Source: Schmidtea polychroa
Lineage: Eukaryota
Assembly: GCA_044892525.1 (NCBI GenBank)
Contig: CM097885.1
Span: 10,232,001-10,296,000, forward strand
Length of the DNA stretch: 64,000 nucleotides
Direction: 5' to 3'
The position numbers and the translations under genes are program-made. The notes beneath the pieces are model-generated. The model had not been told where the DNA came from. It saw nothing but the letters and a program-made list of their open reading frames with translations, and searched no databases. Below, piece after piece: positions 1 to 33,078 of the stretch (the first letter of the stretch is position 1; each line of letters opens with the position of its first letter).

Positions 1-673
1 AAGGTTCTAGTGGGCTAAACCAGGATTGCCGAGAGAAGTTCATTGTAGGCTTGAGTCTTGCGTGCTCCAGCTGTCTCCGCTCGTTGCTGGGAATTGCCAA
101 TAGGATTGACAGTTGCGGATAATTCCTAAACTTTACGAATTTACTAATTTTAAATTTACAGTCTAACTTACTTCGAAGGATCCAGATGAATTGCAACACA
201 GAAGGGAATGAATCTAAAAATCTAATATACCAAAATAAACTAAATTTATCAGGAAAAAGTTTTTTTTTATATTTAAAAGCCTTATAATTAAATGTATTTA
301 AAATTTACTATTCAAAACCATTGTAGTTTACTTTAAATTTGACCTTATTATGATTGTTACGATAAAACACCGTAAGATATGCTAGGGAAAATTAATCGAG
401 GTGATTAATTGGTAATTTCCGCGTAAGTTAAATTTTAATGTATAGTGGAAGACTTGAATTTTAATTTAAGCAAAAGTTGAGGTACCCTTTTAAGTACAAT
501 TTAAGTTAATCTGATTAATTGTTTAAATTATGAACATTTGGAGTTTGCTTCGTATTGTAAGCCAATTTTTTTTTTGATTGTGTGTGGTTTCATATTAGCC
601 CGGGAGCGTTGTAGAGGTAAACGTTCTCGTTTGAATTGTGATAACCTTATTAATCCTTACTACCCAAATAGAT

Positions 674-1039
674 ATGTCACACTCAGACGACTCCAACGAT
701 GATGAAGGCTACAGACAAATGATCACCCGGCTCCGGTCCCGGTACGTCTGGCATCACATCCATCGGTGGGGCCAGGGACGGGACTTAGATTGTTCCAACC
801 AAGTAATCCGGACGGGCCCCGAAGTAGATGCCCCGGCGTGGGTAAAAGTAGAACCCACCAACAACGTGCTCCGGGAAGCCCGCGATCGAGCGGCCGATGA
901 GGTAGTAGAGGCCCAAAAGGGGCTGAGGAGACTCGAGCTCCAACTCAAGGCCGACACGTTGGGGATAGCTCTTGAAGAGCTGGAGGAGACCGATGCCCCT
1001 CCACGAAAACGGGGGAGGCCCCGCAAGAACCCGGCCTAA
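674..1039 (+). CDS. LTR-encoded small protein with coiled coil and C-terminal AT-hook (PRKRGRPRK)
   Basis: ATG 2 nt after a TAG acceptor; GC-rich ORF; RGRP AT-hook core; AATAAA about 20 nt after the stop; intact in both LTRs. Confidence 0.65.
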   Translation: MSHSDDSNDDEGYRQMITRLRSRYVWHHIHRWGQGRDLDCSNQVIRTGPEVDAPAWVKVEPTNNVLREARDRAADEVVEAQKGLRRLELQLKADTLGIALEELEETDAPPRKRGRPRKNPA

Positions 1040-1328
1040 CTTATCGACAATCGCGGCCTGAATAAAACGATTTTTACTGACCTGATTTAGTGATATTTTA
1101 GTAACCTAACGAATTGTATTTCTCTTTTGTTTATCAAACATAATCTATCGTGTAGTGATGCAATAAATTATATTTTAGTTATTTATACTTTGGGCTTTAT
1201 AGCTAATGGGGCGTATTCATAATTGAGGTGACCCTTTTCTCATCACCCACTTACAAATTCCATGCATGTACTCTAACCAACTTTGCGCACCAGAAGGCGA
1301 ATGAGGGGATTTATTATTATTTTCTTCA

Positions 1329-1763
1329 GTGTACCAGTTATTGGAAAACCTACGAAAGGACCGCGAACAGGCCCAGCAACAATCCGAGGGTCTCCGAGGT
1401 CGGGTCGAAAAACTCAAGCTGAAGTATCGAGAACTCCAAAGTACGTGGTTCAGTCCGGCCGACATGAAAAAACAAACTACGCGCATCTCACAACTCCAGA
1501 CCCAGGCGGAGCAAGATCAGCTCGAGATCCGAGCGCTGAAGCTACAAGTGCGCTCGCTCGAGAGTAAATTGAACGAAAAATTTGTCCAGGACACCCTTTG
1601 CGAGCAGATTCGTCCACTTTCCGTAGAGTTGGCCCGGATATACCCACCGGCCCAGACGAACAAGCCGAAACGCAAACGGTTAGGACGGAACACCCGAGAG
1701 AAATTGAAAAGGGCCTGGCTGGCTGAGCAGGAGAAAGCGAAAGGGCCTGAAGTCAATCCATGA
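1329..1763 (+). CDS. LTR-encoded coiled-coil protein with basic C-terminus; likely a spliced exon (no ATG)
   Basis: Begins at a TTTTCTTCAG acceptor; heptad-rich; KPKRKR basic patch; AATAAA at about 1818; identical in both LTRs. Confidence 0.55.
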   Translation: MYQLLENLRKDREQAQQQSEGLRGRVEKLKLKYRELQSTWFSPADMKKQTTRISQLQTQAEQDQLEIRALKLQVRSLESKLNEKFVQDTLCEQIRPLSVELARIYPPAQTNKPKRKRLGRNTREKLKRAWLAEQEKAKGPEVNP

Positions 1764-2145
1764 TCTTGGGAGGCGTTCGAGAGTGCGTGAACAATCTATG
1801 TAATATGGTGGTGGCTTAATAAATGAGTCTTGTTATTTAATGAGTATGAGAGTGAACTTTGCTGTTGTCTAAAACAGGATGGTTGGCGGGAAGGCGCTTG
1901 GAAAAACAATCTCGATGAGGGACCGAAATAAATCGGACACGTGCCTTCTATCGGCGTCCGTGAACCCATAGAGTGCTCGACAATTACAGTGCTTGGCGCG
2001 CTCACTTTTTGCGAGTACTCAACCCCTTGGTACAGTACCAACGTTGATTGCTCAACGGGTACCAAGAGGAAAACAATGTTGTATTCTGGGTTACGCTGGT
2101 AACAGCACTTAAACATTCAACCACCAGTAACCCACCATACAAATT

Positions 2146-2163
2146 TGGGGGCTCAGCCGGGAT
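2146..2163 (+). promoter_or_regulatory. Primer binding site, tRNA-Pro
   Basis: TGGGGGCTCAGCCGGGAT, 16/18 identical to the MLV tRNA-Pro PBS TGGGGGCTCGTCCGGGAT; just 3' of the 5' LTR. Confidence 0.9.
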
Positions 2164-2859
2164 TTGAAAATTTAATTGGTGAAAGAACCCGAGAATAGAT
2201 ATAATAGAGAGAGTAAAAGCTGATATAAAGTGATATGCATTCAAGACCGAGCAGGTTGTCTTCCCAAGCGCTTAAACTTAGTATATGGATATGTGAATAT
2301 GATAAAATGTATGTAGAATGTCTAAATGAGTGATGGAAGTTTTAAAGTATGACGACATATGAATGTATTGAAAGTGGGTATGAGAATGCTGTACGAATAA
2401 CTTAGTAATAGAATGAATGAGGATAAACGAAAATTAAAACGAAAACAAATTATAATAAAATTGTAAATATCAACGATTAATAAAATGTAAATATAAGGAA
2501 ATAATAAAAATTTAAAAATAGGGAAAAGGGGGGATAGCACGCTAATAAAGATAGAACAAACGAACAATGAAATTAAACTTAATCAGAAAACGTGTAAAAT
2601 ATGGCGATAACGAATGGGATATGGGTTATATATAATTAAAACGATTGTAATAAAATCACAAGATCATGAAAGAAATTTGCGCGGAATAGAGCATTAAACA
2701 GAGGGAGACGGGGTTGTTAAGGGTAATAAGTAGAATGTAAAGGTTTATCGAAGCACTAATAAAATAAAGTATTCTGGATATTAGGGGGAAAACGATAAAG
2801 GGGGAAAATGACGCGGAATATTAATAAAAAGAGAACTTTAATTAATAAATCTTAATTAG

Positions 2860-3342
2860 ATGGAATCAACCGGCTACATTACAAAGAGACTCGAAAAATT
2901 CGTAGATTTAACACACAATTCGTTACAACGGCTAAATCGCAAAGCGGACCAATTAATAAAAATCCAAGATGAGATGAGCTTGAATCCAAGACCGCAAGCT
3001 GAGGAAATATGTGTAATGATGAAAATAGCGACACCTAATGCAGAATTGACCACTAAAAGAGTTTATCAACTTCAAAATTTACGATTAGATAATGCCAAAT
3101 TTAACATCAAATGGCAGGAGATAATGATAAAAATGGAAACGATCGAGGAAGAAATTAAAGAAGCAATCGAACATCAAGTTAAAGATTTTAGAAAATGCTT
3201 CATATGCAGAACCAATGAAATACGAGTAATGACGATTCCATGTGGTCATTTATGCTACTGCGAGAATTGCGCAGAGAAAATTAAACGATGCAACGTATGC
3301 GATACGAATGTTAGAGAGAAAATTGTAATATACCTCCCATAA
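2860..3342 (+). CDS. Coiled-coil plus IAP-type C3HC4 RING protein (no BIR), putative E3 ligase
   Basis: CFIC...PCGHLCYCENC...CNVC and IAP-like C-terminal IYLP tail; TAG|ATG start; AATAAA after the stop. Confidence 0.85.
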   Translation: MESTGYITKRLEKFVDLTHNSLQRLNRKADQLIKIQDEMSLNPRPQAEEICVMMKIATPNAELTTKRVYQLQNLRLDNAKFNIKWQEIMIKMETIEEEIKEAIEHQVKDFRKCFICRTNEIRVMTIPCGHLCYCENCAEKIKRCNVCDTNVREKIVIYLP

Positions 3343-4039
3343 GGAGATGTTGTCAAATAAATTTCTTGTGAATGAATATGAAGTGATAAACTTAGTAAAT
3401 TATATTAAAAATCCATTATAGCAACCGAAAGGTATAAAACATACGATGAACATAGACATATAAAGAACACAGAATACGTTAAATAAATAGACAAGCAACA
3501 CAGCAATTAGAACTAAAATCAAAGTTGAATGCAGGACTGATCATAGTCAGTACGATTTTTATTTCCAATTTTCTTTTCTTCCTGTTTGTTATTTTGGCAT
3601 AAAGAGATACGATAATGAGGGGATGACAAGTGAATCGTCCTTACGACACTTGCCCGGATGGGGAAATCCTGATCACCCTGATGAGAGAATGTAGTAGGAT
3701 CCATCGCAAATGTTGGGGAGTTTCTGTCCAGTGACTGATCACCACTTGTGGGAAACGAACCAACGCGATTATTATATTTTTTGTCTGGGAGACTGGGACT
3801 AACTAAAAGGGCGAATAAAAATAGAAAAATAAAATAAAAATTGAAAAACGCGCGCTAAATGTTAAAAATTTAATCTGAGAGCAGCTGCGGATTTGAAGAA
3901 ACCGTTTTTGGACTTCAAATCAGATGAGAATAATGATTTTTCCCTAGCGAGTGATGAGGCACCCGAGTACAGCGGCTAACCACCGGACTGTAGTGTCCAG
4001 GAGATTATCAGCCAAGGGACTGATGATGCTGGATCACCC

Positions 4040-4610
4040 AATACAAAAACCCTGATGCCACACCGAGTATTGGGCGCACTTTTTTGAGTTGCTAGCGGGA
4101 CTTGATACAAAAACCCGGAAGGGTAGCGAACGAGAGAGACCCAGTTACCTACACCGAGTATCAAGGAGCCCAGTGAAACGGTTGTGAGATGCGAGTCAAC
4201 CGGTAAAGGACTCGTACTCAACAGGCAACCAAGATTGGACCAGTTGTGAGGCGGGAGACCGAGAGTCAACTGCATATCCAATTTCCTTTTAGCTTCACTA
4301 GTCGGGAGATCTGGTTCATCACTTTTGAGAATCACGATCAAGGCGATTAGGCATTTCCGTGTTTTTTAAATCCTGATAGATAGGATGTTTTTGCTTCGTG
4401 ATTATTGCTAGCAGGGGTCGGTACAAAACCCGGATGCCCACACCGAGTACCGATAGGCCCAGTGAAACGGCGATGAGATTAGAGTTACCGGTATTAGACT
4501 CTTTTCAATAAGCGGCCAAGAATTGAGCCAGTTGTGAGGCCTCAGCAGATTAAGAGTTTGAGTAGGAGGAGCCTCGAATTTTTGATTAGCCCGAAAGTCA
4601 ACTGTCAACT
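4040..4610 (+). repeat. Degenerate direct repeats in the 5' leader
   Basis: Blocks TACAAAA(A)CCC..ATGCC..ACACCGAGTA, GCCCAGTGAAACGG and CCAGTTGTGAGGC recur at about 4041-4270 and 4421-4545. Confidence 0.75.
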
Positions 4611-4720
4611 CAATTTAATCGCGGTAGGGACGATAGTAGGTGTTAAAACCGAAGGCGTCTGGGGGTTGAAGAAACCTCATTTAGGGCATTTGAAACCGGT
4701 CAGGGACCGAAGACCGCGAA

Positions 4721-5034
4721 TACGGCGTAATGGTGTAAAAGCCCAGGCGTCTAGGAGTCGTAAAAGACTTCAATTTTGATTAAACCGGCCGGAAGCCGAT
4801 GCCGACGCGGAGGTCTAACAAACCAAAGCGTTGATGGGTAATAGGAGATTATACGGCGTAATGGTGTAAAAGCCCAGGCGTCTAGGAGTCGTAAAAGACT
4901 TCAATTTTGATTAAACCGGCCGGAAGCCGATGCCGACGCGGAGGTCTAACAAACCAAAGCGTTGATGGGTAATAGTAGATTATATGGCGTAATGGTGTAA
5001 AAGCCCAGGCGTCTAGGAGTCGTAAAAGACTTCA
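4721..5034 (+). repeat. 131-bp tandem repeat (about 2.4 copies) in the 5' leader
   Basis: TA(C/T)GGCGTAATGGTGTAAAAGCCCAGGCGTCTAGG starts at 4721, 4852 and 4983; decayed partial units continue to about 5190. Confidence 0.92.
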
Positions 5035-5903
5035 TGAGATTAAAATGAGTTGATTAAACCGGCCAAGGAGCCGATGGTAATTGAGTGAAATGATTTAAAT
5101 GAAAATAAAGGAGTTGAACAAACCGGCCAGAGAGCCGATGGTAAATAAAGGTGGATGTAGAGGTCGCGCGAACCAAAGCATCAATGATTAACTATGAAAT
5201 TGATTAAACTGAAATAGATTAAGTGCGATAAATATGTAATGAGTTGAGGAGAATTATGATAAAGCGCCGGCGCAAGCGAAAATGAAACCAGTTTTTGGAT
5301 GGGGAAAAGCGAACGAATAGATAGTAGTTGAATTATTGAATTTTATTTATTAATGATATGTTTATTTTGATATTTATGTGATTGATATTATATCTCTATG
5401 ATAATTATAAAAGGGATAGATAATTGATGCGACTATATAGATAATTGATACGAGTTATAGATAATTTAAAATCAACTTAAAATCAAAATGGGGCGAATAG
5501 CGAGAAGTGTAGAAAAGCTAGAAAATTTGAAGCGAAGGGACAGTAAAATAAAGGGAAAAGGAAAAGTAAATGAAGGGTTTAATAAAGAGAATTTATGATA
5601 TGTACTAGAGGTGTTAATTATTTTAGAATAAAGCAAACAATTCAGAAAGAAATCAAAGAAATCAAGAAAGCAATAGAAATCAAGAGATATAGAGAAATCA
5701 ATTAGAAGCGAAGAATCAAGGAAATTAAAAAAACCAAATCCAAGAAGAGTTAGAGAATCGTAAAGATTAAAGCGAGAAAAATACTTAGAAAACATCGAGC
5801 TCGATTGACAAAGTAGAAAATTTATCAAAGGATATTAAAAGGAGGAAAAATTGATAGCATAGCTAACCGAACGAGGCGAAAAAGTAAAGGAAACCTCAGT
5901 TTA

Positions 5904-7439
5904 TTGGAAAAGGAAGAGATACAAAAGGCCAAGACCAACAGAAAACTACACAGGAAGCCAGCATCAGTAGAAACAGTATTTGAATCAGACAGTTTAACAA
6001 ACGAATTTGAGAACAGCGACGACCTTAAACGAACCGAACTAGATCCGATAAGTGACATTGAATCATCAGACGAGGAAGGAAATAGTTCAGAGTCAACCAA
6101 TATAACAATTTTGTGTCAAGAAATAATGACAGACGGAATTCCAAATGTAACAGGGCTAACGGACCCACCGGAAACAAGTAATGTGCACGTCAACATTGGA
6201 GAATTCAGAGAGAAATTTCGAGGAGAGCCATTCGATGGAAATATAAACCAGCTGGAAACGTTTATAAAGGAATTCGAAGTATACATTACGATATGTCACT
6301 GGCCAGATATAGTCGTACGAGAACGAATACCCCTATATCTAAAGGGAAGCGCCCAAGATGTATACTTGGAGGCGAAATGTGATGCAACAAAGTTGAGAAC
6401 GTGGAAAGAGATCAAGGAGTTTTTAATAAAAACATTCGGTACCGAAAAAGAGGGAAATCGAAAAATGTTAGACTTTCTGCATCGAAAGCAGAAATATAAC
6501 GAATCCAACGCACTGTACGCATGCGAATTGAGGCGACTAGCACGAGAAGCCTTCGATTCAAATCAACCAGTTCCGGAAGACAAAATAATAGCCGTATTCG
6601 TAGATGGCATGAAACGAGAGGATATACGGGCAACCTTGGGATGCCGAGCACCAGAGACGCTGGAAGAAGCACTAAAAATCGCTAACAAATGTGAAACCTA
6701 CTTAACACCAATACAAGTAGCAGCAATGACAGCAGCTCCAGCAGCTCCAGCGGCAACAGCAACAACCACAAACAACCAAGTCAATAATGCAAATCCAGTA
6801 ATGAACCAATTCATCCCAGGATCGCAACAGTTGTTCAAAACCCCACAAACGAGAAACCAAGACAATGGAGGTAATATTCAAAATTTTACTAATAATTTCA
6901 GGAACAACGACATCAACAATCGAACGTGCAACATATGCCAAAGACCAGGGCATTGGAGCAATGAATGTTATAAAGCAAGGATGTGTCAAAAGTGTGGGAG
7001 AAGAGGCCACACGGAAAATGTCTGCAGAGGACCCATGATGTCTATGGGCAGAGGAGGAACCAGAACCTGCTACAATTGTAATCAGCCTGGACACATGGCA
7101 AGAGAATGCACGATGAGAACCAAACCAAATCAACCAGGATCAAACAATCCAGTTCAGAACACACAAATCAACCTCATGCAGGAAATCGAACAATTAAAAG
7201 ATATGATCCAGCGAATACCGACTAATAACCAACAACAACGAATCAACATGATGCAGAGCACCGAGGAAATCCGGAACCAACCAAGTAAGCAACAACAAGA
7301 TCAGCAACGAGTCGAATGGCAAAGATTACAAAACGAGGAAGCCAGAGAAATTCAAGAAAGATGGAAACAACGGGAAGCGAATCCCGGAAGAATAAATATG
7401 ATGAGATTACCAAATAAAGAGGAATCGCACACTGCGTAG
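5904..7439 (+). CDS. gag: Gag (capsid-like region plus nucleocapsid with three CCHC zinc knuckles); first ATG at 6126
   Basis: Retrotransposon Gag-like PFDG...LKGSA..Y segment; knuckles CNICQRPGHWSNEC, CQKCGRRGHTENVC and CYNCNQPGHMAREC. Confidence 0.93.
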   Translation: MEKEEIQKAKTNRKLHRKPASVETVFESDSLTNEFENSDDLKRTELDPISDIESSDEEGNSSESTNITILCQEIMTDGIPNVTGLTDPPETSNVHVNIGEFREKFRGEPFDGNINQLETFIKEFEVYITICHWPDIVVRERIPLYLKGSAQDVYLEAKCDATKLRTWKEIKEFLIKTFGTEKEGNRKMLDFLHRKQKYNESNALYACELRRLAREAFDSNQPVPEDKIIAVFVDGMKREDIRATLGCRAPETLEEALKIANKCETYLTPIQVAAMTAAPAAPAATATTTNNQVNNANPVMNQFIPGSQQLFKTPQTRNQDNGGNIQNFTNNFRNNDINNRTCNICQRPGHWSNECYKARMCQKCGRRGHTENVCRGPMMSMGRGGTRTCYNCNQPGHMARECTMRTKPNQPGSNNPVQNTQINLMQEIEQLKDMIQRIPTNNQQQRINMMQSTEEIRNQPSKQQQDQQRVEWQRLQNEEAREIQERWKQREANPGRINMMRLPNKEESHTA

Positions 7440-10400
7440 CAGTGTGTTAACAACGACGGGAGTGAACCGATAATAAACAAGGAGATAAAAACGACAAAAG
7501 AAAATGAGATTGATCCACGAACAGAATTGAGCAGTGAAGAGAAAATACAATTGATTAAAGAATTTACCAAAGAGGAGAAAGAAAGGAGACAAAAGAGAGA
7601 TGAGAGTAAAGACGAACCAAAAAGCAATGAGATAGTTACAAAAAATCGAATTCAGAGGGTACTACTACAAAAAATCGAAGACAGAATCAAAAACGAAAAC
7701 CCTACATTAACTGAGGAACAAATAAAAGAAAAAGTGAAAGAGCATTGGTTCAGGAAAAATGAGTGGTTTGAAAAGAAGGAACCACATACCAAAGCTAAAA
7801 TAAACATGCTGAGACAAATGCGGAGCGATCAGACGGATCAGGAAGATGAGAAAAGTGAGGTGAGTAGCCTGGGAGGCGAATTATTTCAGTCAAGTGAGGA
7901 AAATAACGAACCGAAAACACCTCCAAACAGTGAAACACCTCAAAGTAGTGAGGAGAGTGAAAATGATGACATGAAATCAATGATAGAAAAAGATGAAGAA
8001 GAGATATTCGAGGAAATTCTCGACACAGTAACAGAAATAGAGCGAAATGAGAGCTACATCAACGAGTTAACATACAGAAAATGCTTAAAACTTATAACTC
8101 AAGTATACCAGTGTGAAGGAGGTATAATAACGGCAGCATGGAAAGATTTAGCAACAAAATATAAAGAGAAACTAAAGGAAGCAGGCCCAGATCAATATCA
8201 AGTAAGTATTCAACACCCCGAGATTCAGATACAGACTATTGAATTAAAAGGAACAAATACCGATGAACTGTACAACTGGGTACAGGAAAAAATGGGAACG
8301 AGCCATAAAAATAAACAATTATATGTCGATGGTTACAAAGTTAAAATGGGCATACATTTGGTAGATGCGATGATATGGCCAAACGAAACTAACATCTTAA
8401 CCTTAGAGAAAACCAGAGATGACGACTCGGTAGCAGAAATGTTCAAGAAAATCCAACAAGTGTTTAACAATGAAGTGGAACCAGAATTGGAAAAGATCGA
8501 ACGAAAAATAAGGAAAGAAAATCAAATAATCTTAGTCAAACAAGCTATCGATCAGACAAGGAAATACATTAATAGACTGAGAGAAAGATGGCCACAACTA
8601 ATGAAACAATTCGTTAAAGACGTACGAGACACGGAAATCATGAGATTCGAAGACAAACGAGCGACAGAATTGATATCTAAATACGGAGAATACGAGAGAA
8701 CCAAATGCGAGCATGAAACGATAAAAATAAAGGTGAAGTTGCCAAATGAAGAGAAACAAATAATAGAAGTTAATCCCGATTGCCAAGTTGACGAGTTAGT
8801 GCAAATCATAGATCAAGAGATCATCCAAAAAGCTCGAGAAAATAGTGAGGATGGAATGATCGAAGATGTGATAATAATGTACAACCGGCACATGCTAGAA
8901 AGAGGAGACCGAACTGTAATTTACGAACTGGGAATCTGGGAAGATGGAGCCGTCATCAATATAATCGCGATGGATGAACCATCTGGTGGGCACAAAAACG
9001 CCACGAAAACCGAGCAACAAATTAAAAGATTCCAATGGGGAATGAGGGCAAAGATGGATCGAATAATAGATATTTATAACCATTGGCTAAAGGATGATAA
9101 ACTAAAACTAGCAGCCTTCAATGACGAAGATTGCAAACTGATACCATGGAAAAAAGTGTGGATCGAAAGTGAAGCTCGATGGGAATGGGAGCAGCAAAAG
9201 TTGGAACCAAATTGGATAGATAATATACCCGAAGAGATCGCAGCAGTATGGGTAAGGGAGAAACCGATCGATACTTACCAGGATATATTACCACAAGAAT
9301 TCCAAAATGAATTACCATCAGGAGAAGATGAGGAGATACGAGAACCAGTAAGGTTAGCACCATTCACGTGGAAAATTGAGAATTGGATGGGAAAGATAAA
9401 ATCAGCAAAGGAAGAGAAAATCACACGATTAGTAAGTCCACCGTTCTACTCAGGATTAGGTGAGTACAAGATGAAATTGCGAATATACCCGAACCGAGAC
9501 GGGATAGGTAAAGGAAATTATGTGTCGGCATTCTTCGCCATCTGCAAAGGAAATTATGACGACAAGGTACCATGGCCGTTTAGCAGAAAAGTGACGATAG
9601 CAATCGAACCATTGAAAGATAGCCTTAACATGCACAAAGAAACATTGAAACCAGATCCAAGGAGCGCCTGCTATCAACGACCAACAACATCAGAAAATAT
9701 CGCTTCTGGGACACCTAAATTAATACGTCTAAGTTACATTGAGAATGAGCAGTCAAAATTTGTGAAAAACAATGCTATCCAGATCAGAGTAGAAGTTGAA
9801 ACAGAACAAGAAATGAACCAACGACTGAACATACCAGAAAATCAACCGAGAATCTGTATGATGAGGAGAAGAGTGCCTGATTCAGGACATCTACCAATAG
9901 ACGCAGATGCAGATGAGGAGGAAGCAGCAACATTGTTGGAAGCACAAAAATGTAAGGAGTTGATGGAGATATTACAAAACGGGGCGAAAAATCGTCGACG
10001 AGCGGTGGTAGAACTAGCAAAATGGATAGCCGAATCATGCAAAAGGATTCAAAACCTACGAAAAATCGTTAAAGCGATTGAAGAATATCGACGGGTGTAC
10101 GTATGGTACCCTGAACAATTTGGTGAAATTATCCGGAAATGGAAACAACAAGAGTGGGCCGAAAACTCACCTGAGAAATATCAATTAAAAATATTCATGC
10201 CAGATTTTGAACCAATGGAAAAGGAATTCTATACGACAGCTAAAGTCAGAGAAGTTAAAAAGAGAATACCTTATGAACTCCCATTCCACTTACAACACGA
10301 GGGACGATCATTAGACGACGATATTGAGATTGGTGTGACACCACTCCAAGGAGAAATTGTGAACAGATTAACGGTGAGTAAAATTGCAGGTAGAGAGCTA

Positions 10401-20192: not shown

Positions 20193-20338
20193 CGAGAAGA
20201 GGAGTTGCTGTAAATAATGTATAAATGAAATGATAAAAGTAGTGATAATAGTAGTAGTATGTACAAATAAAAATAGAAAATTAAAACAATATGTAGAAAA
20301 TCAAAAACAAGTATGATGACCATGTATTATAAATAGGA

Positions 20339-20779
20339 ATGAACCAGAGAAACGAAGAGCAAGAACACCCAAATGGGATACCACATGTTGTTGAAGTAAG
20401 AGAACAGCCGTTAATGAATGTACATCCAGTAGACATGATGGAAATGAACGTGCCAAACCAGCCGAGTCAGCCAACAGGATCCATGTGGAGGGCACAGTGT
20501 GAATTAATGACCCAATTGACAAATCAAACTCAAGAGCAAACGGCGTTGATAGAGAGTATTAATAGAAATGCAATATATATTACAAAAATAGAGGAACAAC
20601 ACCAAATAATCGCGCAACTAGAATACAATAACAATCAGTTAATAAGCCAAATCAGATGGCAAGCGGAAGAAATTAGAAGGTTACACGAAAATCGACAACA
20701 TGATGATATTGCCAGTCTAGTCGAATGGATGACCGGGCTACCAGGAACTGGGGAACCGGACTCGACGGTGGATGTATAG
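20339..20779 (+). CDS. Accessory coiled-coil protein, unknown function
   Basis: 146-aa ORF with an acceptor just before the ATG; Q/E-rich heptads. Confidence 0.7.
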   Translation: MNQRNEEQEHPNGIPHVVEVREQPLMNVHPVDMMEMNVPNQPSQPTGSMWRAQCELMTQLTNQTQEQTALIESINRNAIYITKIEEQHQIIAQLEYNNNQLISQIRWQAEEIRRLHENRQHDDIASLVEWMTGLPGTGEPDSTVDV

Positions 20780-20866
20780 GAGAGAGAGGAGTAAAATGTA
20801 AATAACCTTGTAAATAAATAGAGTATAACCAAGTAGAATCCCAAGATTTAAAGTTATCATTGTAGA

Positions 20867-23610: not shown

Positions 23611-23692
23611 CAACAATTAAAATTCCGTGTATAAAGTGTAGATAATAAATGTATGAAATAATAGTAGTAGTAATAGTGTAACTATTTAGACA

Positions 23693-25291
23693 ATGAATAA
23701 AGAATCACAAACCTATGTGGAAACCGAGATGCAACAACTCGAACAGTACAAATCCATCATACAAACATACGAAGCAGAAAGAGTAAAGAGAGAAATAGAA
23801 ATGTACAAAACCATGTATGAGAAAAAGCAACAAGAGTTAGAAGTGGAGAAGGCGGAAGCACTAGCAACAAAGGAGGAGTGGATGAAACAGGTAGAGGAAT
23901 TAACCGAGGATGTGAGAAATACCTCAACATACCAAGAATTGGAGGAAGAGCTCTCGAATTTACGAACTCAGCGGATTATGGAGATAGTTGGGTTATGCGG
24001 AGAGATAATAATGCAGAAGGCACAAATTAGGGAAGCAAAGGAGCAATACGAGGAGGAACAGCGTAAAACGGAACGAATAAAACTACAAGCGCAACAATGG
24101 AAACTAAAGTACGAAACCCTCCAGACAAGGCAGAATGATAGTCACGAACATCAAATACGGAATTACAAGGCCGAACTAGAAGAAGTAAAGGGCAAATGCG
24201 CAATGATGAAAGAAAAATGGGAAAGATGCAAAAAGACCCTAAACGAAGTCAGAGGGCAAGGGAGGAGAACACCGCATAGAGAACCAATTGTTAAAGATAA
24301 CGTATTAGAGCGAATTAACACACAAATAAAGATACAAGCCCAGAAATGGAAGTATAAATACCTAGGAAGTCAAACTCAAGTGCTCTATTGGAAAATCAGT
24401 AGCAAGGAACAACTGCGATTACGAAAAGCAGACCAAGAATTTTACGAAATAAGGGCTACACAGCGAGAAGAAGAGGAAGTAGAGTGGAGAAAACGACAGC
24501 AGAAATTTGAGGAAACCGAAGAGTGTCTCAAGCATCAAGCCCGAAAATGGAAAAAGAATTGGAAAGAAACCAAAGAGGAGTTAAGACAGTTACCAATGAA
24601 ACTGATGGAAAGAGACGAATTTAAAATGTGGGAAACGATAGAAAACCAAAAAGATGAGATCAGCCGATTGAGTAGAGAACATAGAATCAAGACGCGGACC
24701 AGCGACGGTAGACGGAGAGTCATAAAGAAACAGACTCGAGAAATAAGAAGGTATGAATACCAGGAAAAGAGATGGGAACAACAATTGACAGACCAAGATC
24801 GACAGATCCGACAATTACAAACAGAGGTAGAAGAAGCTAATCAAGAGATGAACGGATATAAAGGTATGTACACCCAAAGGGATGTGAATTGGAAGCATCA
24901 GATTGCGCTTAATGCGAAATGTAGAGAGGAGTGCGAAAAGGCAATTCAACAAGCCAAACAGGAAACCAAGATAATAAAACGATGCTTCGAAGAAAATGAA
25001 GCGAATCTGAGAGCAGAAATCGAGAAGTTGAAAATGCTTGAAAAAACCCAACGATTGGAAGAGGAATTGGATGAGATGATAGAAAACGAAAGTAGATTAA
25101 CGTTTCTGTTGGATGAAGAAATAAACATCTCAACGGAATTGCGGGAGGAAGTAGATCGGTTAAGAAGACAACCACCAATACTATTAATGCCACTCTACCC
25201 GTTCCCATTACAAGTGCCACAGCCTGCCGAAGTCACAACAGATGAAGGCTTCGAACAAAATAACGAACAAAATAACGCAACATGGAATTAG
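23693..25291 (+). CDS. Long coiled-coil accessory protein
   Basis: 532-aa E/K/Q-rich heptads with internal repeats (K.QA.KWK.KY); no ATPase motifs. Confidence 0.8.
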   Translation: MNKESQTYVETEMQQLEQYKSIIQTYEAERVKREIEMYKTMYEKKQQELEVEKAEALATKEEWMKQVEELTEDVRNTSTYQELEEELSNLRTQRIMEIVGLCGEIIMQKAQIREAKEQYEEEQRKTERIKLQAQQWKLKYETLQTRQNDSHEHQIRNYKAELEEVKGKCAMMKEKWERCKKTLNEVRGQGRRTPHREPIVKDNVLERINTQIKIQAQKWKYKYLGSQTQVLYWKISSKEQLRLRKADQEFYEIRATQREEEEVEWRKRQQKFEETEECLKHQARKWKKNWKETKEELRQLPMKLMERDEFKMWETIENQKDEISRLSREHRIKTRTSDGRRRVIKKQTREIRRYEYQEKRWEQQLTDQDRQIRQLQTEVEEANQEMNGYKGMYTQRDVNWKHQIALNAKCREECEKAIQQAKQETKIIKRCFEENEANLRAEIEKLKMLEKTQRLEEELDEMIENESRLTFLLDEEINISTELREEVDRLRRQPPILLMPLYPFPLQVPQPAEVTTDEGFEQNNEQNNATWN

Positions 25292-25444: not shown

Positions 25445-26210
25445 ATGAATTATTTAAAAGACAGAATCAACGAGTAACGTAAGAAAATCAATTGACCAAC
25501 CTGAACAAAGCCAGAATACGATACCAATCAAACAAGAACCGATGAAATATTATAGTAATAAATGGAGAGTCAGCAAGAAGTTGTTCAAAACAAAAATCGC
25601 AAATCAAAATGTAGAGATTACGAGATTGAGACAGCATATTGTTCAATCAAGACGATTAATAAACACTGTCAAGCAGGAAATTTTGAGGGAAATAAATGAA
25701 TCGAAACTAAAAGAGACGGAAAATAAAAACTTGAGACAAGAGATAGTAGAGTTAAGAGCTCAGGCAGTAATCGAAGACTATTGGAAATCAGAAACAAGGA
25801 AGTTGAAAAAGATTGTGAATATCGACCAAGTTTATATCGAACAATTGGAAGCACAATACGCTTATGCAAAAACGAGAATGCGGGAAAGTAAAAAGGTCGA
25901 CAAGAGAAACGCAAGACTCAAGGAGGAGATCAAGGAACAAAGAGAGGAAACAGAAAAACAATGGAAGTTGAAAGAGAATTATCGGAGAATTTTAAATCAA
26001 AAACGACGAAGCATGCAAGCACTGCAGACGACAATGACCATCAGACAGAGAAAATGGAAAAGTGAAGAGAAGCGATTACAAGAAATACCAGAATTAAAGA
26101 GACAGTTGATGGCAACGCAACTCGAAGTAATAAGGATGAACGAGTTGAGTAAAAGACGAGCACCTGAACCTCCCGTAAAATTAAGGGATGAGGTCGGTGG
26201 CTCCCAATAA
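25445..26210 (+). CDS. Coiled-coil accessory protein; probable +1 frameshift near 25455-25459 (open from 25542)
   Basis: TAG|ATATG at 25440-25447; removing one A from TTAAAAG joins this ATG to the 222-aa ORF. Confidence 0.7.
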
Positions 26211-26286
26211 ATGAGATAAAATAACTGTGTAAATAAATTGTAAATAAAGCCAAGTAATTATTATTAACGTATATGTATATGTAAAG

Positions 26287-27273
26287 ATGAGAAGCCTAAC
26301 CGTGGTGATAATTATAATGACAATGCCCAGAATCCTGCAAGCTGAAGAATCAATGATCAGATGCCAGAAAGAATACCCATATCGCAGAGAAGATAGCACC
26401 TGTAGTAGCTTTAAATCAATCTGTGAAAAACCCAATGAAGAATGCGAACAAATCGAGTTGCAATGTTCGCAATGTCCACAAACAACTGGAAGTTCGACGG
26501 AAATGCAAATGGCTCAGACAATGAAAACAATATTAGAACAAGAAATGAAAGTTATCAGAACCCAGATAGCAACATTAGCCAAACAATTCCAAAGCCAGAA
26601 ATCAAAGAAAGAAACCCAAACGGATCCGGCCGCAATGAGAATGATGGTAATAATATTAGAGGAAATAAAACAACAGGTAACAGCAACCGCCAATGGACGT
26701 TCAAGCAATTGCGAAATAGTAGTAAAATCTTTAGAGGAAATGAAAGGAAAAATAACTTCCATCATCAAAGAGGAACCCAGCATTAAAAATGAGGTAACGA
26801 AAACCTTGAAAGAAATGACAAAAGAAGTCCTAACTACCATAAACAAAAACCCAATGAACTCCGAGAAGATGATTAAAACCCTGGAGGAAATAAAGAAAGT
26901 TGTCACCTCGGAAGAAAACAAATTCAACAAACCCGAAAAATCTGAAATTACAGATACAACCCAATTGGGAGAAATGATAAACAAACCCAGAGTAGTAGAA
27001 CTAAGAGAATCTGAACCCCTCACAATATTGATCCTATTAGCAGCAAGCCTAATGATAAACATTACCGTACTGAGCCTGATTGCACTCAAACCCAATTCCA
27101 GTAAAGCAAGAAACAAAACCCTCAAACTAAAAGAACAATCAAAGAGTATTCGTATCCCAATGGAAGAACAGCTAATCCAAACAACGAACCAACCAAGATA
27201 CTTCAAATCTTCCCCAAACATCGAAACCAGAGCCGTCATCGAGACGAGATCCCGAACAACAGAATTCTATTAG
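26287..27273 (+). CDS. Type-I membrane protein: signal peptide, Cys-rich N-terminus, repeated helical stalk, TM and cytoplasmic tail
   Basis: MRSLTVVIIIMTMPRILQA signal; six Cys; ~23-aa repeats K(S/T)L(E/K)E(M/I); TM LTILILLAASLMINITVLSLIAL. Confidence 0.8.
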   Translation: MRSLTVVIIIMTMPRILQAEESMIRCQKEYPYRREDSTCSSFKSICEKPNEECEQIELQCSQCPQTTGSSTEMQMAQTMKTILEQEMKVIRTQIATLAKQFQSQKSKKETQTDPAAMRMMVIILEEIKQQVTATANGRSSNCEIVVKSLEEMKGKITSIIKEEPSIKNEVTKTLKEMTKEVLTTINKNPMNSEKMIKTLEEIKKVVTSEENKFNKPEKSEITDTTQLGEMINKPRVVELRESEPLTILILLAASLMINITVLSLIALKPNSSKARNKTLKLKEQSKSIRIPMEEQLIQTTNQPRYFKSSPNIETRAVIETRSRTTEFY

Positions 27274-29099
27274 TGTGACATCATGACAGTAAAAACATTT
27301 CACGACATTATAAACGATAAATCATCCTGATCGAACAATTGATTTCAAAGACTGAGACTACGATTAATGACACTGATTCTTGAGCATGATAATTTTATTT
27401 TTATGTGGGCCGACCTCGGTCGTTCTTTTTCTTCATCTTTCAACCCATCTGTAAAATGTAGTGTAATAGTAGCATTTTTATGTATGTGGGTATTGAGGTC
27501 ACGACCCTGTAGCTCGTGGACCCAATTTGCATGTAGGCACTTGTAATATAGTGCAAGTATTCTGAAAATTAATCTTATTCATCTTTGGATTTAAATTGCG
27601 GGTCGCAATTTTATGGGCCCCCGAGTGTTTTATGTTGGGCTAGAACTGATTTCTAGACCCAAACTACTAATTGTGACTGAAACGTGCAGGTACACAACAT
27701 GTAAAAAGCAAAAAGTATAGTTAAATATTAAAATACACACCAAATAAACAATATTAACTAAAGGAGAAAGCAACAAAAACATAAACAAAGAAATTAAATA
27801 AAATTATACAGAAGCAAGAAGTGATGCAAAAACCTAACTCAAAAATAATCAAACAAACATAGAATTACCAAAAGCAAACTCGAATAACTGAAAAGACGAT
27901 AAAAATAGTAAAAAATTCCAGAAAAACCCAGAACATTCTATAAAATGGCGATGACCATCACAAAAGTCATCTAGAACAACAAAAGTTAAGGAAAATAAAT
28001 GAATTAGTATTAAAAATAAAAAATCTCAAAAAGAAATTCATAAAAACATCAGTTAAAATAAAAATTAAATTAAAAGTAAAATAGAATGTTCTGGAACCGT
28101 TCCAAATCCATCATGGACGTCAAATTAACAAAAAATAATTAAAAAATAAAAATATAAAAATAAAAACAAAAATTATGGCACAAAAATCGCCATTAAAAAT
28201 AGCAAAATCGTAAAATAGAAAATTCTGGAATAAAAAGAATTCGAGTTTGTTTTAACGCATCAATACATACACGTGTACAAAATAGGTATATATACTGACA
28301 CGTTTCAGGCACAAGTAATCATTATTTTGTTTATGCCAATATTTTATTAGAAATTTTCCGAAAGTTATTAGTAAGTAGATTTTTCTTTTGTTATTCGATG
28401 TTATCATGATTAATGTAACTATTTTAATGTAGATTAATATCCATAAGATCAATTTCTTTTTATGTTTATCTTTTATTAAAAATTTTTGTTTGAATACGAC
28501 TGATCAGCGGCGTCGCAGTGCGTCTCTGTTCAGTCCTGCATTTGATATTAACAATTTTTGAAACATGCAGACATGCAATATTCTATATATATATTTTTTT
28601 TTTGTTTGGTCATCGGAGGTCGGCCACTTCATGGTTCTACCATGGAGTTGTGTCGATAAAACCCCTCCGCTATGGCTCTATATGCTTTATTTATCGGTCG
28701 ACAGTGATGTTTCGACTCAACACAACAGTAGGGCTTGTCGTAGCGGTCACAGTGGGGCCGTGTAAGCAAGCATTCTTCCCGAGTACAAGCAAACATATTT
28801 AATTTCAACATTAAAAATCGTAGACAATAGGGTACACTAAGGTCGTAATCGAGTAGATCTCAGACCCAAATTGAACACAGCAATTACAATTCAGCTAATG
28901 TAGTCGGTTAAGACCTCTCCACTTACACGTTTGTCGAACCTCATTGAGAAATAATTTTTCGTATCAGTGTAAATGTCTCTCTCGAAATTAACCGTAATGA
29001 TGCTCACGAAGGAGTTCGACAAGTGTGAATCGTAAAATGAACTATATACTCTCCTGTTACACTTAAACATCAGGCTATAAATGTATAATGTTCCTAAAC

Positions 29100-30400
29100 T
29101 ATAGAAGATATGTTAGAATTGCTAAATACTTAGAATTCCTAAATGGTAAAACATAACTTACTACTGTACTTAGAATTATATGTGATAATTACGTAATACC
29201 TCTAAATTACAAATATGAGTTAATATTGTCTTCAAAAATATAATTTATAAAAGTTAAATTGTCAAATACCTCTTAATACTATGCCTGAAAATAATGCGGA
29301 ATATTCATAAATTATAAAATTTTACTTTATACTATCCTCAAAATTATAATCTATAAATGTGTAAAACATAATTTATAAATATTAAATTATAATATACATG
29401 CTTGAAAAGCAATTTTAAAAATGTGTAATATTCCTAAATTATAAAATTTTACCCTATCTTATTCTTAAAATTATAACTTATGCCTGTGTAAAAATATAAT
29501 TTATAAATGTCAAATGGTAAAATATAACCTAGTACTATGCTTGGAGGTATAATTTATTATAAAATATAACCTAATTCTATACTTAAAAAATAAGTTAAAA
29601 GGTACGTAAAAAATTTTTTTTTATTGTACCTAAAAATATAATTTATAAATATGTAATATTACTAAATTATAAGATTGTATTGCTTGTGGTTCGTAAATCT
29701 TACCTTGAGATTATCGGTAGCAAACTAAAATGTAAACTCATACTACGTATAAATTATAAAATATATCTTAGTATTTTCTGTATAAAAGTATAAAGTCATG
29801 CTACTCATAAAGTACAAATTATGTCCTAGAATTATACACAAAAATATAAACTATAGGTTTATATTGCCCATAAATTATAGAATGTAACGTATGCGTAGAA
29901 TGTAAATTACAAACTATAAGGTATGATTTTGGTTATAAGTTATAATTTCGGTATCCATAAATACAAAGTATAAATTCCAAAGAATAGAAACTATAACTAG
30001 CTATATATAGCTCATGAGTCCGTAAAGTGTAAATTGCAAGGCTGAAGTGTGGATTATGGAGTAATTATATAAAGTATAAACCGTAAATTATTTGTATAAA
30101 AGTATAATCTAATTATATATCTAAATTACAAACTTATAAACACAATGGTAAATCTAAATTACAAACTGTAAGCTTAAATTATATATATGAAGTATAAACC
30201 GTAGATTATTTTTATAAAAGTATAATCTAATTATATGTCTAAATTATAAAATTATATATCAAAATTATCTATCTAAAAATTATATATCTAAATTATACCT
30301 CTAAATTATATATCTAAATTATATAAACTTATAAAATACAATCATAAATTTAGATTACAAATTACAAACTATGATTTCATACTCCATATAAGGTAAAGGA
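29100..30400 (+). repeat. AT-rich short-period repeats inside the LTR (TAAATTATA / TCTAAATTATATA / AAATTACAAA)
   Basis: Many copies, most regular at about 30100-30370. Confidence 0.7.
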
Positions 30401-31339
30401 CCAAATTCTGAATTCTAAGTTTATATTTCGTATATAATTGATAAATGACGAATGTATAAAATGTACAGTTGCGTATGCGAAATTAGCTAGGTTATAAATA
30501 ACCCCTACGCCAAAATTATGGAGTATAATGACAAACATAAAGGAGAAGCACGCCCGACCTCTAGATCGGAAACCGCAGTGAAGCTTGACGATAATTTAAT
30601 TAAAACTAATTTAACATCCAGTCGAAAGAGAGAATAATATTTAACATTTATTTTACAACATCAAGGTTCTAGTGGGCTAAACCAGGATTGCCGAGAGAAG
30701 TTCATTGTAGGCTTGAGTCTTGCGTGCTCCAGCTGTCTCCGCTCGTTGCTGGGAATTGCCAATAGGATTGACAGTTGCGGATAATTCCTAAACTTTACGA
30801 ATTTACTAATTTTAAATTTACAGTCTAACTTACTTCGAAGGATCCAGATGAATTGCAACACAGAAGGGAATGAATCTAAAAATCTAATATACCAAAATAA
30901 ACTAAATTTATCAGGAAAAAGTTTTTTTTTATATTTAAAAGCCTTATAATTAAATGTATTTAAAATTTACTATTCAAAACCATTGTAGTTTACTTTAAAT
31001 TTGACCTTATTATGATTGTTACGATAAAACACCGTAAGATATGCTAGGGAAAATTAATCGAGGTGATTAATTGGTAATTTCCGCGTAAGTTAAATTTTAA
31101 TGTATAGTGGAAGACTTGAATTTTAATTTAAGCAAAAGTTGAGGGTACCCTTTTAAGTACAATTTAAGTTAATCTGATTAATTGTTTAAATTATGAACAT
31201 TTGGAGTTTGCTTCGTATTGTAAGCCAATTTTTTTTTTGATTGTGTGTGGTTTCATATTAGCCCGGGAGCGTTGTAGCAGAGGTAAACGTTCTCGTTTGA
31301 ATTGTGATAACCTTATTAATCCTTACTACCCAAATAGAT

Positions 31340-31705
31340 ATGTCACACTCAGACGACTCCAACGATGATGAAGGCTACAGACAAATGATCACCCGGCTCC
31401 GGTCCCGGTACGTCTGGCATCACATCCATCGGTGGGGCCAGGGACGGGACTTAGATTGTTCCAACCAAGTAATCCGGACGGGCCCCGAAGTAGATGCCCC
31501 GGCGTGGGTAAAAGTAGAACCCACCAACAACGTGCTCCGGGAAGCCCGCGATCGAGCGGCCGATGAGGTAGTAGAGGCCCAAAAGCGGCTGAGGAGACTC
31601 GAGCTCCAACTCAAGGCCGACACGTTGGGGATAGCTCTTGAAGAGCTGGAGGAGACCGATGCCCCTCCACGAAAACGGGGGAGGCCCCGCAAGAACCCGG
31701 CCTAA
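31340..31705 (+). CDS. AT-hook protein, 3' LTR copy
   Basis: Same as 674-1039 except for one G>R change. Confidence 0.65.
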   Translation: MSHSDDSNDDEGYRQMITRLRSRYVWHHIHRWGQGRDLDCSNQVIRTGPEVDAPAWVKVEPTNNVLREARDRAADEVVEAQKRLRRLELQLKADTLGIALEELEETDAPPRKRGRPRKNPA

Positions 31706-31994
31706 CTTATCGACAATCGCGGCCTGAATAAAACGATTTTTACTGACCTGATTTAGTGATATTTTAGTAACCTAACGAATTGTATTTCTCTTTTGTTTAT
31801 CAAACATAATCTATCGTGTAGTGATGCAATAAATTATATTTTAGTTATTTATACTTTGGGCTTTATAGCTAATGGGGCGTATTCATAATTGAGGTGACCC
31901 TTTTCTCATCACCCACTTACAAATTCCATGCATGTACTCTAACCAACTTTGCGCACCAGAAGGCGAATGAGGGGATTTATTATTATTTTCTTCA

Positions 31995-32429
31995 GTGTAC
32001 CAGTTATTGGAAAACCTACGAAAGGACCGCGAACAGGCCCAGCAACAATCCGAGGGTCTCCGAGGTCGGGTCGAAAAACTCAAGCTGAAGTATCGAGAAC
32101 TCCAAAGTACGTGGTTCAGTCCGGCCGACATGAAAAAACAAACTACGCGCATCTCACAACTCCAGACCCAGGCGGAGCAAGATCAGCTCGAGATCCGAGC
32201 GCTGAAGCTACAAGTGCGCTCGCTCGAGAGTAAATTGAACGAAAAATTTGTCCAGGACACCCTTTGCGAGCAGATTCGTCCACTTTCCGTAGAGTTGGCC
32301 CGGATATACCCACCGGCCCAGACGAACAAGCCGAAACGCAAACGGTTAGGACGGAACACCCGAGAGAAATTGAAAAGGGCCTGGCTGGCTGAGCAGGAGA
32401 AAGCGAAAGGGCCTGAAGTCAATCCATGA
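31995..32429 (+). CDS. Coiled-coil/basic protein, 3' LTR copy
   Basis: Identical translation to 1329-1763. Confidence 0.55.
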   Translation: MYQLLENLRKDREQAQQQSEGLRGRVEKLKLKYRELQSTWFSPADMKKQTTRISQLQTQAEQDQLEIRALKLQVRSLESKLNEKFVQDTLCEQIRPLSVELARIYPPAQTNKPKRKRLGRNTREKLKRAWLAEQEKAKGPEVNP

Positions 32430-33078
32430 TCTTGGGAGGCGTTCGAGAGTGCGTGAACAATCTATGTAATATGGTGGTGGCTTAATAAATGAGTCTTGTT
32501 ATTTAATGAGTATGAGAGTGAACTTTGCTGTTGTCTAAAACAGGATGGTTGGCGGGAAGGCGCTTGGAAAAACAATCTCGATGAGGGACCGAAATAAATC
32601 GGACACGTGCCTTCTATCGGCGTCCGTGAACCCATAGAGTGCTCGACAATTACAGTGCTTGGCGCGCTCACTTTTTGCGAGTACTCAACCCCTTGGTACA
32701 GTACCAACGTTGATTGCTCAACGGGTACCAAGAGGAAAACAATGTTGTATTCTGGGTTACGCTGGTAACAGCACTTAAACATTCAACCACCAGTAACCCA
32801 CCAATAATAATTATATTGACACTAAATGTAATGGGGAAGGCGTAATGACATTAACATTTTTGTTTCTTGGGTAGGAATAGTGTGACATATTGGTTAATCA
32901 ATACCAGTAAAATGGTAATACTGATTATGGGAAGTGCTCAATGATTTGATCAGTTGATATATAACAATTCGTCCAATAATCAATAATAATCATCCTCTTC
33001 ATCACCAGCAGAAATAATTAAGACAAAACAAACTTTATTAAAAGATCTAATATAAAATGAATGATTGAAAATAAACAA

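Follow-up and report, generated by a model that had tools for sequence, protein, structure and literature searches.

A probable Burro-type giant Ty3/gypsy element of Schmidtea polychroa with apoptosis- and ubiquitin-related accessory genes under purifying selection

The stretch of DNA analysed here (64,000 nucleotides of Schmidtea polychroa, GenBank assembly GCA_044892525.1, contig CM097885.1, positions 10,232,001 to 10,296,000 of the forward strand; hereafter the window) carries at positions 1–32803 the right 32.8 kb of a Ty3/gypsy long terminal repeat (LTR) element with a total length of 35,832 bp. The best overall explanation, which we regard as highly probable, is a recently inserted copy of a Burro element of the GYPSM1/Burro-1 type, with accessory genes maintained by selection and with roles in host-cell signalling that can be suggested for them. 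The original prediction, made from the letters of the window, had described a gypsy-like enveloped element of about 36 kb ending at 32803 and equipped with apoptosis and ubiquitin-signalling genes; the length and the right boundary, which is the end of the 3′ LTR, agree with it. The prediction is partly confirmed: what was observed is real and for the most part accurate, the reading given to it is reasonable yet already published, and the copy in the window is defective. Genome searches covered an assembly of 781 Mb, in which four contigs are very large. Domains were assigned with Pfam profiles, phmmer against the Protein Data Bank (PDB) and BLAST, and membrane topology was read from hydropathy and from cysteine and NxS/T counts. 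All features of the element are on the forward strand.

The two LTRs measure 5,166 nt (5′) and 5,171 nt (3′) and are 99.79% identical over about 5.17 kb, with four mismatches and five gap openings. The right 2137 nt of the 5′ LTR occupy 1–2137 and align to 30663–32803, the start of this LTR being 3028 nt left of the window; the 3′ LTR lies at 27633–32803, and its portion 27633–30662 aligns to DNA left of the window. Both LTRs begin with TG and end with CA. The tetranucleotide ATAA is found at either flank, at 32804–32807 and abutting the 5′ LTR outside the window, as expected of a target-site duplication, and a 4-bp match in AT-rich DNA has little weight by itself. The primer binding site (2146–2168) begins 8 nt past the end of the 5′ LTR and is complementary, in all of its 23 nt, to the 3′ end, CCA included, of a tRNA-Pro(UGG) from the same genome. 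Genes for this tRNA form a large head-to-tail array with a period of 475 nt, at C1:130899510-130902533 and on to about C1:130.97 Mb, and a 24-nt pattern of its T-arm and acceptor occurs in the genome 1347 times without mismatch, 834 times forward and 513 times reverse. Two tandem units of 131 nt (4720–4981) were found by repeat search in the 3.7-kb leader. A stop-to-stop scan of open reading frames (ORFs) revealed same-strand frames from 2.8 to 27.3 kb, including a 540-codon frame that is separated by one stop from a frame of 4,250 codons.

The latter two frames make up ORF1. The first encodes gag (5817–7436, first Met at 6126) with three CCHC knuckles (zf-CCHC, E = 6e-13) and matches to Ty3_capsid and Retrotrans_gag; the second (7440–20192) encodes accessory domains, the envelope protein (Env), pol, ankyrin repeats and a second membrane protein. 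The order along ORF1 is gag, ubiquitin-like (Ubl-like) region, MATH, Bcl-2-like region, fusion glycoprotein, protease (PR), reverse transcriptase (RT), RNase H (RH), integrase (IN), ankyrin repeats and second membrane protein. The pol domains (13932–16763) are arranged by Pfam as in Ty3/gypsy elements (Metaviridae): protease at 13932–14207 (RVP), reverse transcriptase at 14871–15347 (RVT_1), RNase H at 15534–15923 (RT_RNaseH and RT_RNaseH_2) and integrase at 16248–16763 (Integrase_H2C2 and rve). Together with the LTRs, their TG and CA termini and the tRNA-Pro primer site, the gag and pol profiles confirm the gypsy-type assignment, and the predicted ankyrin repeats were recovered at 17739–17999 (Ank_2, E = 3.8e-8). 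No Pfam match to a dUTPase-like domain was obtained in the element.

The stop at 7437–7439 that splits ORF1 is private to the window copy. A 300-nt probe retrieved 29 other copies, and in all of them this position holds a sense codon; all covering contigs of three public runs (X1, X2 and X9) show a different letter at 7437. ORF1 of other copies is a single frame of about 4,791 codons from stop to stop. With this nonsense codon, the window copy itself does not qualify as a candidate autonomous element; the expectation that essentially all ORFs are intact holds for the rest of the element and fails for ORF1. Decay after insertion is common in the element family: over 3.2 kb around the end of gag, 19 of the 29 other copies are open and 10 carry additional stops or shifts; of 150 BIR matches, about 28 by a count of the match list lie in shortened frames. 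Rates of non-synonymous to synonymous change (dN/dS) were obtained against one copy of a sister subfamily (loci L052–L055; hereafter copy B), which is collinear with window positions 1898–28909 at 89–95% identity, using codon-by-codon Nei–Gojobori counts and one-sided binomial tests against the proportions of sites.

The envelope fusion glycoprotein is encoded in frame between the Bcl-2-like region and the protease (11541–13280) and comprises an ectodomain and a transmembrane anchor (13224–13280). It matches the profile PF24664 (Monjiviricetes_fusion) with 229.6 bits (cut-off 27; E = 7e-68) over profile positions 1–103 and 260–579, and the Env-like glycoprotein of the original prediction is thereby confirmed. 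A signal-peptide-like internal hydrophobic segment (11487–11540), seen in the sequence, precedes the ectodomain, and a similar segment is present at the same place before env in a second, divergent family of giant polyproteins of the same genome. The genome holds 2580 candidate loci for env. A search against PDB sequences gave no match, and a set of 5.8 billion proteins gave one match, with 40% identity over 36% of the query. The arrangement is not that of Errantiviruses, where env is a separate ORF 3′ of pol. An env placed in the polyprotein frame with no ORF of its own is unprecedented; the ectodomain has a single NxS/T sequon; contigs of runs X1–X3 and X9, which are not recorded as RNA, include no spliced env message; and particles are not reported in the available portions of the Burro literature. 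These points would suit a dead endogenous fragment of an RNA virus, trapped in the polyprotein of an element that spreads only within cells. We consider such an origin distinctly unlikely, since env is among the accessory parts under the strongest constraint, with a dN/dS of 0.04 (five non-synonymous against 35 synonymous differences, p = 7e-19), matches PF24664 over its full length bar an internal stretch and has on its two sides a signal-like segment and a transmembrane anchor, both kept in the divergent family.

Several further modules belong to the ubiquitin-signalling and IAP families. An ORF of 160 amino acids upstream of gag (2860–3342) carries a C-terminal IAP-type C3HC4 RING (PF13920, E = 3.4e-12) and corresponds to the BIR-less RING protein that had been predicted; the second MATH domain of that prediction, TRAF-C-like, lies within ORF1 (9363–9797; MATH_2, E = 3e-27, 96 bits) and is 33% identical (E = 2e-23) to the MATH domain of a separate TRAF ORF. 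The TRAF ORF (20852–22291, Met at 20867) comprises a RING-like region, TRAF zinc fingers, a coiled coil and MATH. Pfam finds three zf-TRAF matches and MATH in it and no match to a RING model, and phmmer aligns residues 38–183 to the RING–zinc-finger region of TRAF6 (E = 9e-10) and residues 297–470 to TRAF5, TRAF1 and TRAF3 (E about 1e-19), in keeping with a full TRAF. The IAP ORF (22432–23610, 392 amino acids) has one canonical BIR (E = 1.3e-15), a degenerate BIR-like motif and a C-terminal IAP-type RING (E = 3.2e-12); its nearest solved relatives are NAIP, XIAP and cIAP (E from 2e-21 to 1e-9). Of 105 scored genomic copies of this ORF 104 are intact, out of 3373 candidate loci. The predicted complex of a TRAF coiled-coil trimer with the IAP BIR received a score of 0.01 and gave no verdict. 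Two putative ubiquitin-like (beta-grasp) segments are placed at 8196–8990 by sub-threshold matches, and the divergent family has a match to Rad60-SLD (E = 0.041). In the genome, two BIR matches of a 393-amino-acid subfamily are 29.8 kb apart on the minus strand (C1:193600677 and C1:193630484); an internal region and a single LTR add up to about this distance, which points to two elements in tandem with a common middle LTR.

The region 10890–11486 probably has a divergent Bcl-2 fold, as judged from weak and concordant profile and structure matches. It contains a BH1-like motif (11193–11228) and a BH2-like motif (11334–11369). A phmmer search of the single sequence against the PDB gave 41 matches, 40 of them to Bcl-xL or Bcl-2 at the BH2 motif, with E values from 0.26. 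In the second giant-polyprotein family, the segment at the same place before the env signal matches PF00452 with E = 1.6e-6 and 29.1 bits (cut-off 31.4); it is about 20–26% identical to the window region and aligns to it with both motifs kept. A four-sequence profile found 148 PDB chains at E ≤ 10, and the best 60 of these 148 are all Bcl-xL, Mcl-1 or Bcl-2, matched across BH1–BH2 with E values of 0.06–0.18. AlphaFold2 models are of low confidence (pLDDT 38.9 from the single sequence and 49 from the alignment); Foldseek with the latter model placed Mcl-1 at all of ranks 1–50 among the matches listed (E = 0.01–0.055, TM-score 0.29–0.45, single-domain targets). Three matches from phmmer against 1.84 billion representative sequences, to ankyrin, TPR and Ig repeat proteins, were judged spurious and rejected, and the ESM Atlas yielded no usable matches to this region or to the ectodomain at the C-terminus of ORF1. 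Across the genome, PF00452 has 909 candidate loci, far more than a handful of host-like genes (e.g., C1:15405873-15406136, C1:34775875-34776186 and C1:6418985-6419263). They include a multi-copy family of 152-amino-acid ORFs, another multi-copy family that always has one in-frame TAG in the match, and the second giant-polyprotein family, with frames of about 3050 amino acids and the Bcl-2 domain again directly before the env signal segment.

The two additional membrane proteins of the original prediction are represented by two further type-I-like membrane segments in hydropathy. The second membrane protein forms the C-terminus of ORF1 (18702–20189), with a signal-like segment (18702–18746), an ectodomain of two modules rich in cysteines and sequons, a transmembrane segment (19857–19913) and a tail of about 92 residues. 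The third has its own ORF (26248–27273, Met at 26287), with an N-terminal hydrophobic segment, a cysteine-rich and then a heptad-like region and a transmembrane segment near the C-terminus. No relatives of either were found in Pfam, ESM Atlas and PHROGs searches, the PHROGs search of the C-terminal membrane protein yielding irrelevant matches only. A small coiled-coil ORF (20333–20779) encodes 146 amino acids from its Met. Two larger coiled-coil ORFs (23690–25291 and 25458–26210) match no Pfam family at E ≤ 0.001, the nearest row being CRM1_C for the second (E = 0.0066).

All 24 ORF and domain segments have dN/dS values of 0–0.36 against copy B. Values are 0–0.02 for PR, RT–RH and IN; 0.03 for the small coiled-coil ORF; 0.04 for the Bcl-2-like region; 0.09 for the RING ORF; 0.10 for Ubl-like segments 1–2; 0.13 for both the ankyrin repeats and the IAP; 0.15 for gag; 0.16 for TRAF; 0.11 and 0.16 for the two larger coiled-coil ORFs; 0.25 for the C-terminal membrane protein; 0.31 for the ORF1 MATH domain; and 0.36 for the third membrane protein. 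In controls, the two wrong frames gave values around 1, with a range of 0.39–14.4, and the non-coding leader 0.49–0.67, and binomial p values run from 7e-3 (MATH) to 7e-69 (pol). For the IAP ORF, comparison with 15 further copies gave 0.06–0.27. Synonymous divergence between the window and copy B (5817–27273) varies from 0.06 at the start of ORF1 and the tail of env to 0.31 in RT–RH and the IAP, and in several copies of the 393-amino-acid subfamily a divergent IAP adjoins a coiled-coil ORF nearly identical to that of the window; such mosaic divergence between subfamilies fits recombination between co-packaged RNAs, as expected.

The apoptosis and ubiquitin genes could also be host passengers, copied along with the element and useless to it. 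Their nearest solved relatives are indeed animal proteins (NAIP/XIAP/cIAP and TRAF1/2/3/5/6), and the copies do decay, as the extra stops around gag and the shortened BIR frames described above demonstrate. However, the low dN/dS relative to shifted frames implies that the accessory genes are not neutral passengers: RING, MATH, Bcl-2-like, ankyrin, TRAF and IAP segments, at 0.03–0.31, are as low as gag and far below the shifted frames. The same modules recur in the same order in the family whose Bcl-2-like region is only about 20–26% identical, and, according to the available text of PMC6431247, in Burro-2, -3 and -4 and in a Dugesia/Girardia element. The passenger reading is very improbable and already largely refuted. 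The comparison across copies proposed with the original prediction showed purifying selection on the accessory ORFs, neutrality was not seen, and the ORFs are present in thousands of other copies. That the 36-kb unit is a chance nest of transposons and gene fragments between two LTRs is the least credible proposal and is refuted by collinearity across copies, given the alignment with copy B, the thousands of candidate loci each for IAP, env and the LTR exon described below, the single 4,791-codon frame spanning gag, env and pol and the location of all ORFs on one strand, even if nesting does occur (as in an LTR of copy B, which has a 426-amino-acid transposase-like ORF and microsatellites) and low-depth joints inside the element, with non-canonical ends, occur in run X9. 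The frame in question, in the 5′ LTR of copy B (L052:2064-3344), has a transposase-like C-terminus and lies beside long AT/ATT-type microsatellites, as identified by eye; it looks like a nested DNA transposon.

A number of results weigh against the interpretation of the window element as a Burro copy with selected accessory genes of the kinds named. Membership of Burro is set by published description, which the element fits, and not by nucleotide identity to a consensus, and the ORF1 of Burro1 is given as 4,873 amino acids in the published portion available, somewhat longer than the ORF1 of the window family. Next to the 3′ LTR a polypurine tract is missing, as the last 60 nt ahead of 27633 are not rich in purines; the plus-strand primer may be atypical or located elsewhere. 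The predicted IAP with two BIRs and a RING stands for one BIR and the RING only. The candidate for the second BIR is a CxxC...H...C motif with BIR-like flanks, recognised by eye; Pfam gives no second BIR at E ≤ 5 (zf-C3HC at E = 0.24 only), phmmer against the PDB finds one BIR region, and BLAST of the two halves of the IAP against each other (E = 0.16) does not support a BIR1-like second BIR. The predicted Bcl-2-like domain, for which several lines concur, has no PF00452 match in the window copy and stays below every curated threshold. For the predicted Ubl domains, weak beta-grasp matches exist at 8700–8990 (OTU1_UBXL, E = 0.007; UCH_UBL1, 0.078; UBX, 0.14; and PI3K_rbd), all sub-threshold, and the other two segments searched gave no profile match, nor was there a PDB match. 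The leader control of 0.49–0.67 places the null expectation below 1, so that MATH (0.31) and, likewise, the third membrane ORF (0.36) stand out only marginally, and for most segments dN/dS comes from a single pairing of copies, by counts that do not correct for transitions/transversions. Finally, contigs of X1, X2, X3 and X9 contain no canonical splice joint on 900–20899, and none of the 16 runs listed in the run search is recorded as RNA.

The genome organization is close to that of published Burro elements. Burro/GYPSM1 elements are described in the available text of PMC6431247 as longer than 30 kb and present in thousands of copies, with three knuckles in the S. mediterranea gag and with MATH_TRAF_C, Ubi2/SUMO-like, BCL2, PR, dUTPase-like, RT, RH, IN, ankyrin, BIR, Smc and AIR1 RING domains; env is located there in frame between BCL2 and PR and matches mononegavirus glycoproteins. 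The same source credits the description of Burro to Jurka 2007 and Grohme et al. 2018, extends the modules to the further Burro and Dugesia/Girardia elements mentioned above and proposes, as the ‘tinkerer’ hypothesis, that Burro elements are integrated proviruses meddling with apoptosis and ubiquitination (Arkhipova & Yushenova 2019, PMC6431247). In the portions available, BURRO1 RNA is reported by fluorescence in situ hybridisation (FISH) as enriched in the intestine and increased on RNA interference (RNAi) of smedwi-2 (Li et al. 2021, PMC8532177), and Burro is counted with the transposable elements of highest activity in ribodepleted stem-cell libraries (PMC6884822). As far as these descriptions go, the window element is like Burro in size above 30 kb, copy number, three CCHC knuckles and the list and order of domains, with BCL2-like and Ubl features matched only weakly; no structural difference could be demonstrated, the points of contrast being the shorter ORF1 and the missing dUTPase-like match. 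All that was tested agrees, by published description, with the earlier guess of a giant gypsy element of the Burro class; the expectation that the architecture was probably poorly described does not hold, since it is already laid out in PMC6431247 as seen in its available text. With both the architecture and the ‘tinkerer’ idea in print, the novelty of these observations is low.

Among env-bearing Ty3/gypsy elements, errantiviruses (Drosophila gypsy and ZAM) express env, which originates from a baculovirus-type F protein, as a separate 3′ ORF from a spliced mRNA. They have in common with the window element a gypsy core with a captured viral fusion glycoprotein, potential infectivity and control by piRNAs; in contrast, the window env, of Monjiviricetes type, is encoded in frame upstream of PR, and the element, with about five times their size, also bears genes for host signalling. 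Large DNA viruses encode IAPs (baculoviruses) and Bcl-2 homologues (herpes- and poxviruses), presumed to serve survival of the host cell. Their virus-borne IAPs with BIR and RING and their Bcl-2-like modules resemble those found here, whereas their genomes are roomy DNA and the modules described here reside on a reverse-transcribing element, partly inside a polyprotein. Pao/BEL elements of mosquitoes (‘Anakin’) captured a chuvirus glycoprotein (PMC7642597), that is, one of the same broad group in an LTR retroelement, although of another superfamily and in another host phylum; in the available text of this source no apoptosis or ubiquitin gene set is reported for ‘Anakin’.

Each LTR also contains a conserved coding exon (1330–1763, with the second copy at 31996–32429), recognised by its conservation and by an AG acceptor at 1328–1329. 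A polypyrimidine tract precedes the acceptor, the exon begins in phase 1 without an ATG (Met) ahead of codon 45, and its product would comprise a coiled coil and, after it, a basic KPKRKR patch. In 12 of 12 LTR variants (the window, ten loci at 82–91% amino acid identity and copy B at 66%) the frame is open and the polypyrimidine tract with a C/T-AG acceptor is in the same place, with sequences diverged upstream of the acceptor. Pairwise pN/pS has a median of 0.19 (range 0.08–0.38, 66 pairs), compared with 1.23 and 1.77 in the shifted frames, and of 6,252 candidates in the genome 150 were scored, 147 of them without a stop. The candidate polyadenylation signal AATAAA (1818–1823), whose function is suggested by a sequence scan, is located 55 nt past the stop of the exon. 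In our reading, a spliced accessory gene ends with this exon, which would be situated in U3 or R. A search of the 5.8-billion protein set gave no matches at 78–251 amino acids. Another LTR frame, 635–1039, was considered as the partner exon and rejected, having one phase-compatible GT in poor context and no counterpart in copy B. This possibly coding frame (also at 31301–31705) is GC-rich, would encode 134 amino acids with an ATG start and has an AT-hook-like RGRPRK motif near its end. Contigs of X1–X3 show no joints over 900–20899, and X9, a very deep run, has many low-depth joints that skip 2.7–8.8 kb within the element and are without GT..AG ends; they could stem from DNA copies with internal deletions, from template switching or from chimeric assembly. 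In complex retroviruses, MMTV sag, the HIV nef/U3 overlap and foamy-virus bet are accessory genes linked to the LTR or U3. The exon resembles these in coding within an LTR, upstream of a polyadenylation signal, at the 3′ end of the transcript; unlike them, it is known from an acceptor and a coding signature alone, and no sequence similarity to them was found.

The right flank of the element contains exons of a Dicer-like gene on the minus strand (33905–57274), identified by eye from RNase III and helicase-type translations. A gap of about 1.1 kb separates them from the right end of the 3′ LTR, which places the element just past the 3′ end of this gene. A histone H2B-like ORF is located at 61662–62072 on the plus strand.

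With regard to function, the IAP, TRAF, MATH, RING, Ubl and Bcl-2-like modules may have been captured from animal hosts and would block death or stress signalling in the cell that expresses the element; that they damp such signalling is what we infer from the roles of their families in animals and DNA viruses. The suppression of cell death and the rewiring of TRAF–cIAP signalling put forward in the original prediction are likewise suggested by domain identity. Env might carry particles from cell to cell, which would matter since the heritable lineage of planarians consists of PIWI-guarded stem cells. By hydropathy, cysteine and sequon counts, gag, the Ubl-like region, MATH and the Bcl-2-like region are predicted to be cytosolic. 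The hydrophobic segment 11487–11540, with a cleavage-like site of small residues, would then lead the env ectodomain into the endoplasmic reticulum (ER), and the strong anchor 13224–13280 would bring the chain back to the cytosol for PR–RT–RH–IN and the ankyrin repeats. The second signal-like segment, 18702–18746, may thread the cysteine- and sequon-rich ectodomain, followed by the transmembrane segment 19857–19913 and the tail. Such alternation of signal and anchor segments would explain how env is produced without an mRNA of its own. The LTR exon, for its part, would form the 3′ end of a spliced accessory mRNA. A search of the Burro literature in the portions available, with supplements and Repbase outside it, found no LTR exon, primer tRNA or membrane topology.

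A bolder proposal, which we put forward as a rather unlikely one, is that Burro is a true complex retrovirus of flatworms, combining an ER-threaded gag–env–pol polyprotein, an LTR last exon and particles that enter neoblasts. Polyproteins of flaviviruses and bunyaviruses are threaded through the ER by internal signal and anchor segments. To our knowledge, neither a single ER-threaded gag–env–pol polyprotein nor a spliced LTR last exon is known in retroelements. If the proposal is true, no subgenomic mRNA would be needed for Env and the second glycoprotein, and the IAP, TRAF and Bcl-2-like modules would sustain differentiated cells, for example those of the intestine, where published FISH locates expression; from these cells enveloped particles would reach the PIWI-protected neoblasts, which in a fissioning planarian are the sole heritable lineage.

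The element illustrates that a reverse-transcribing element can bear a toolkit usual in large DNA viruses, a point already in the literature. Added here are the test of selection module by module, the stop private to this copy, the primer site for tRNA-Pro, the reading of the membrane topology and the LTR exon. The host is a model organism in which RNAi, FISH and stem-cell biology are routine, and these additions could steer work on Burro versus planarian cell-death control and the PIWI pathway.

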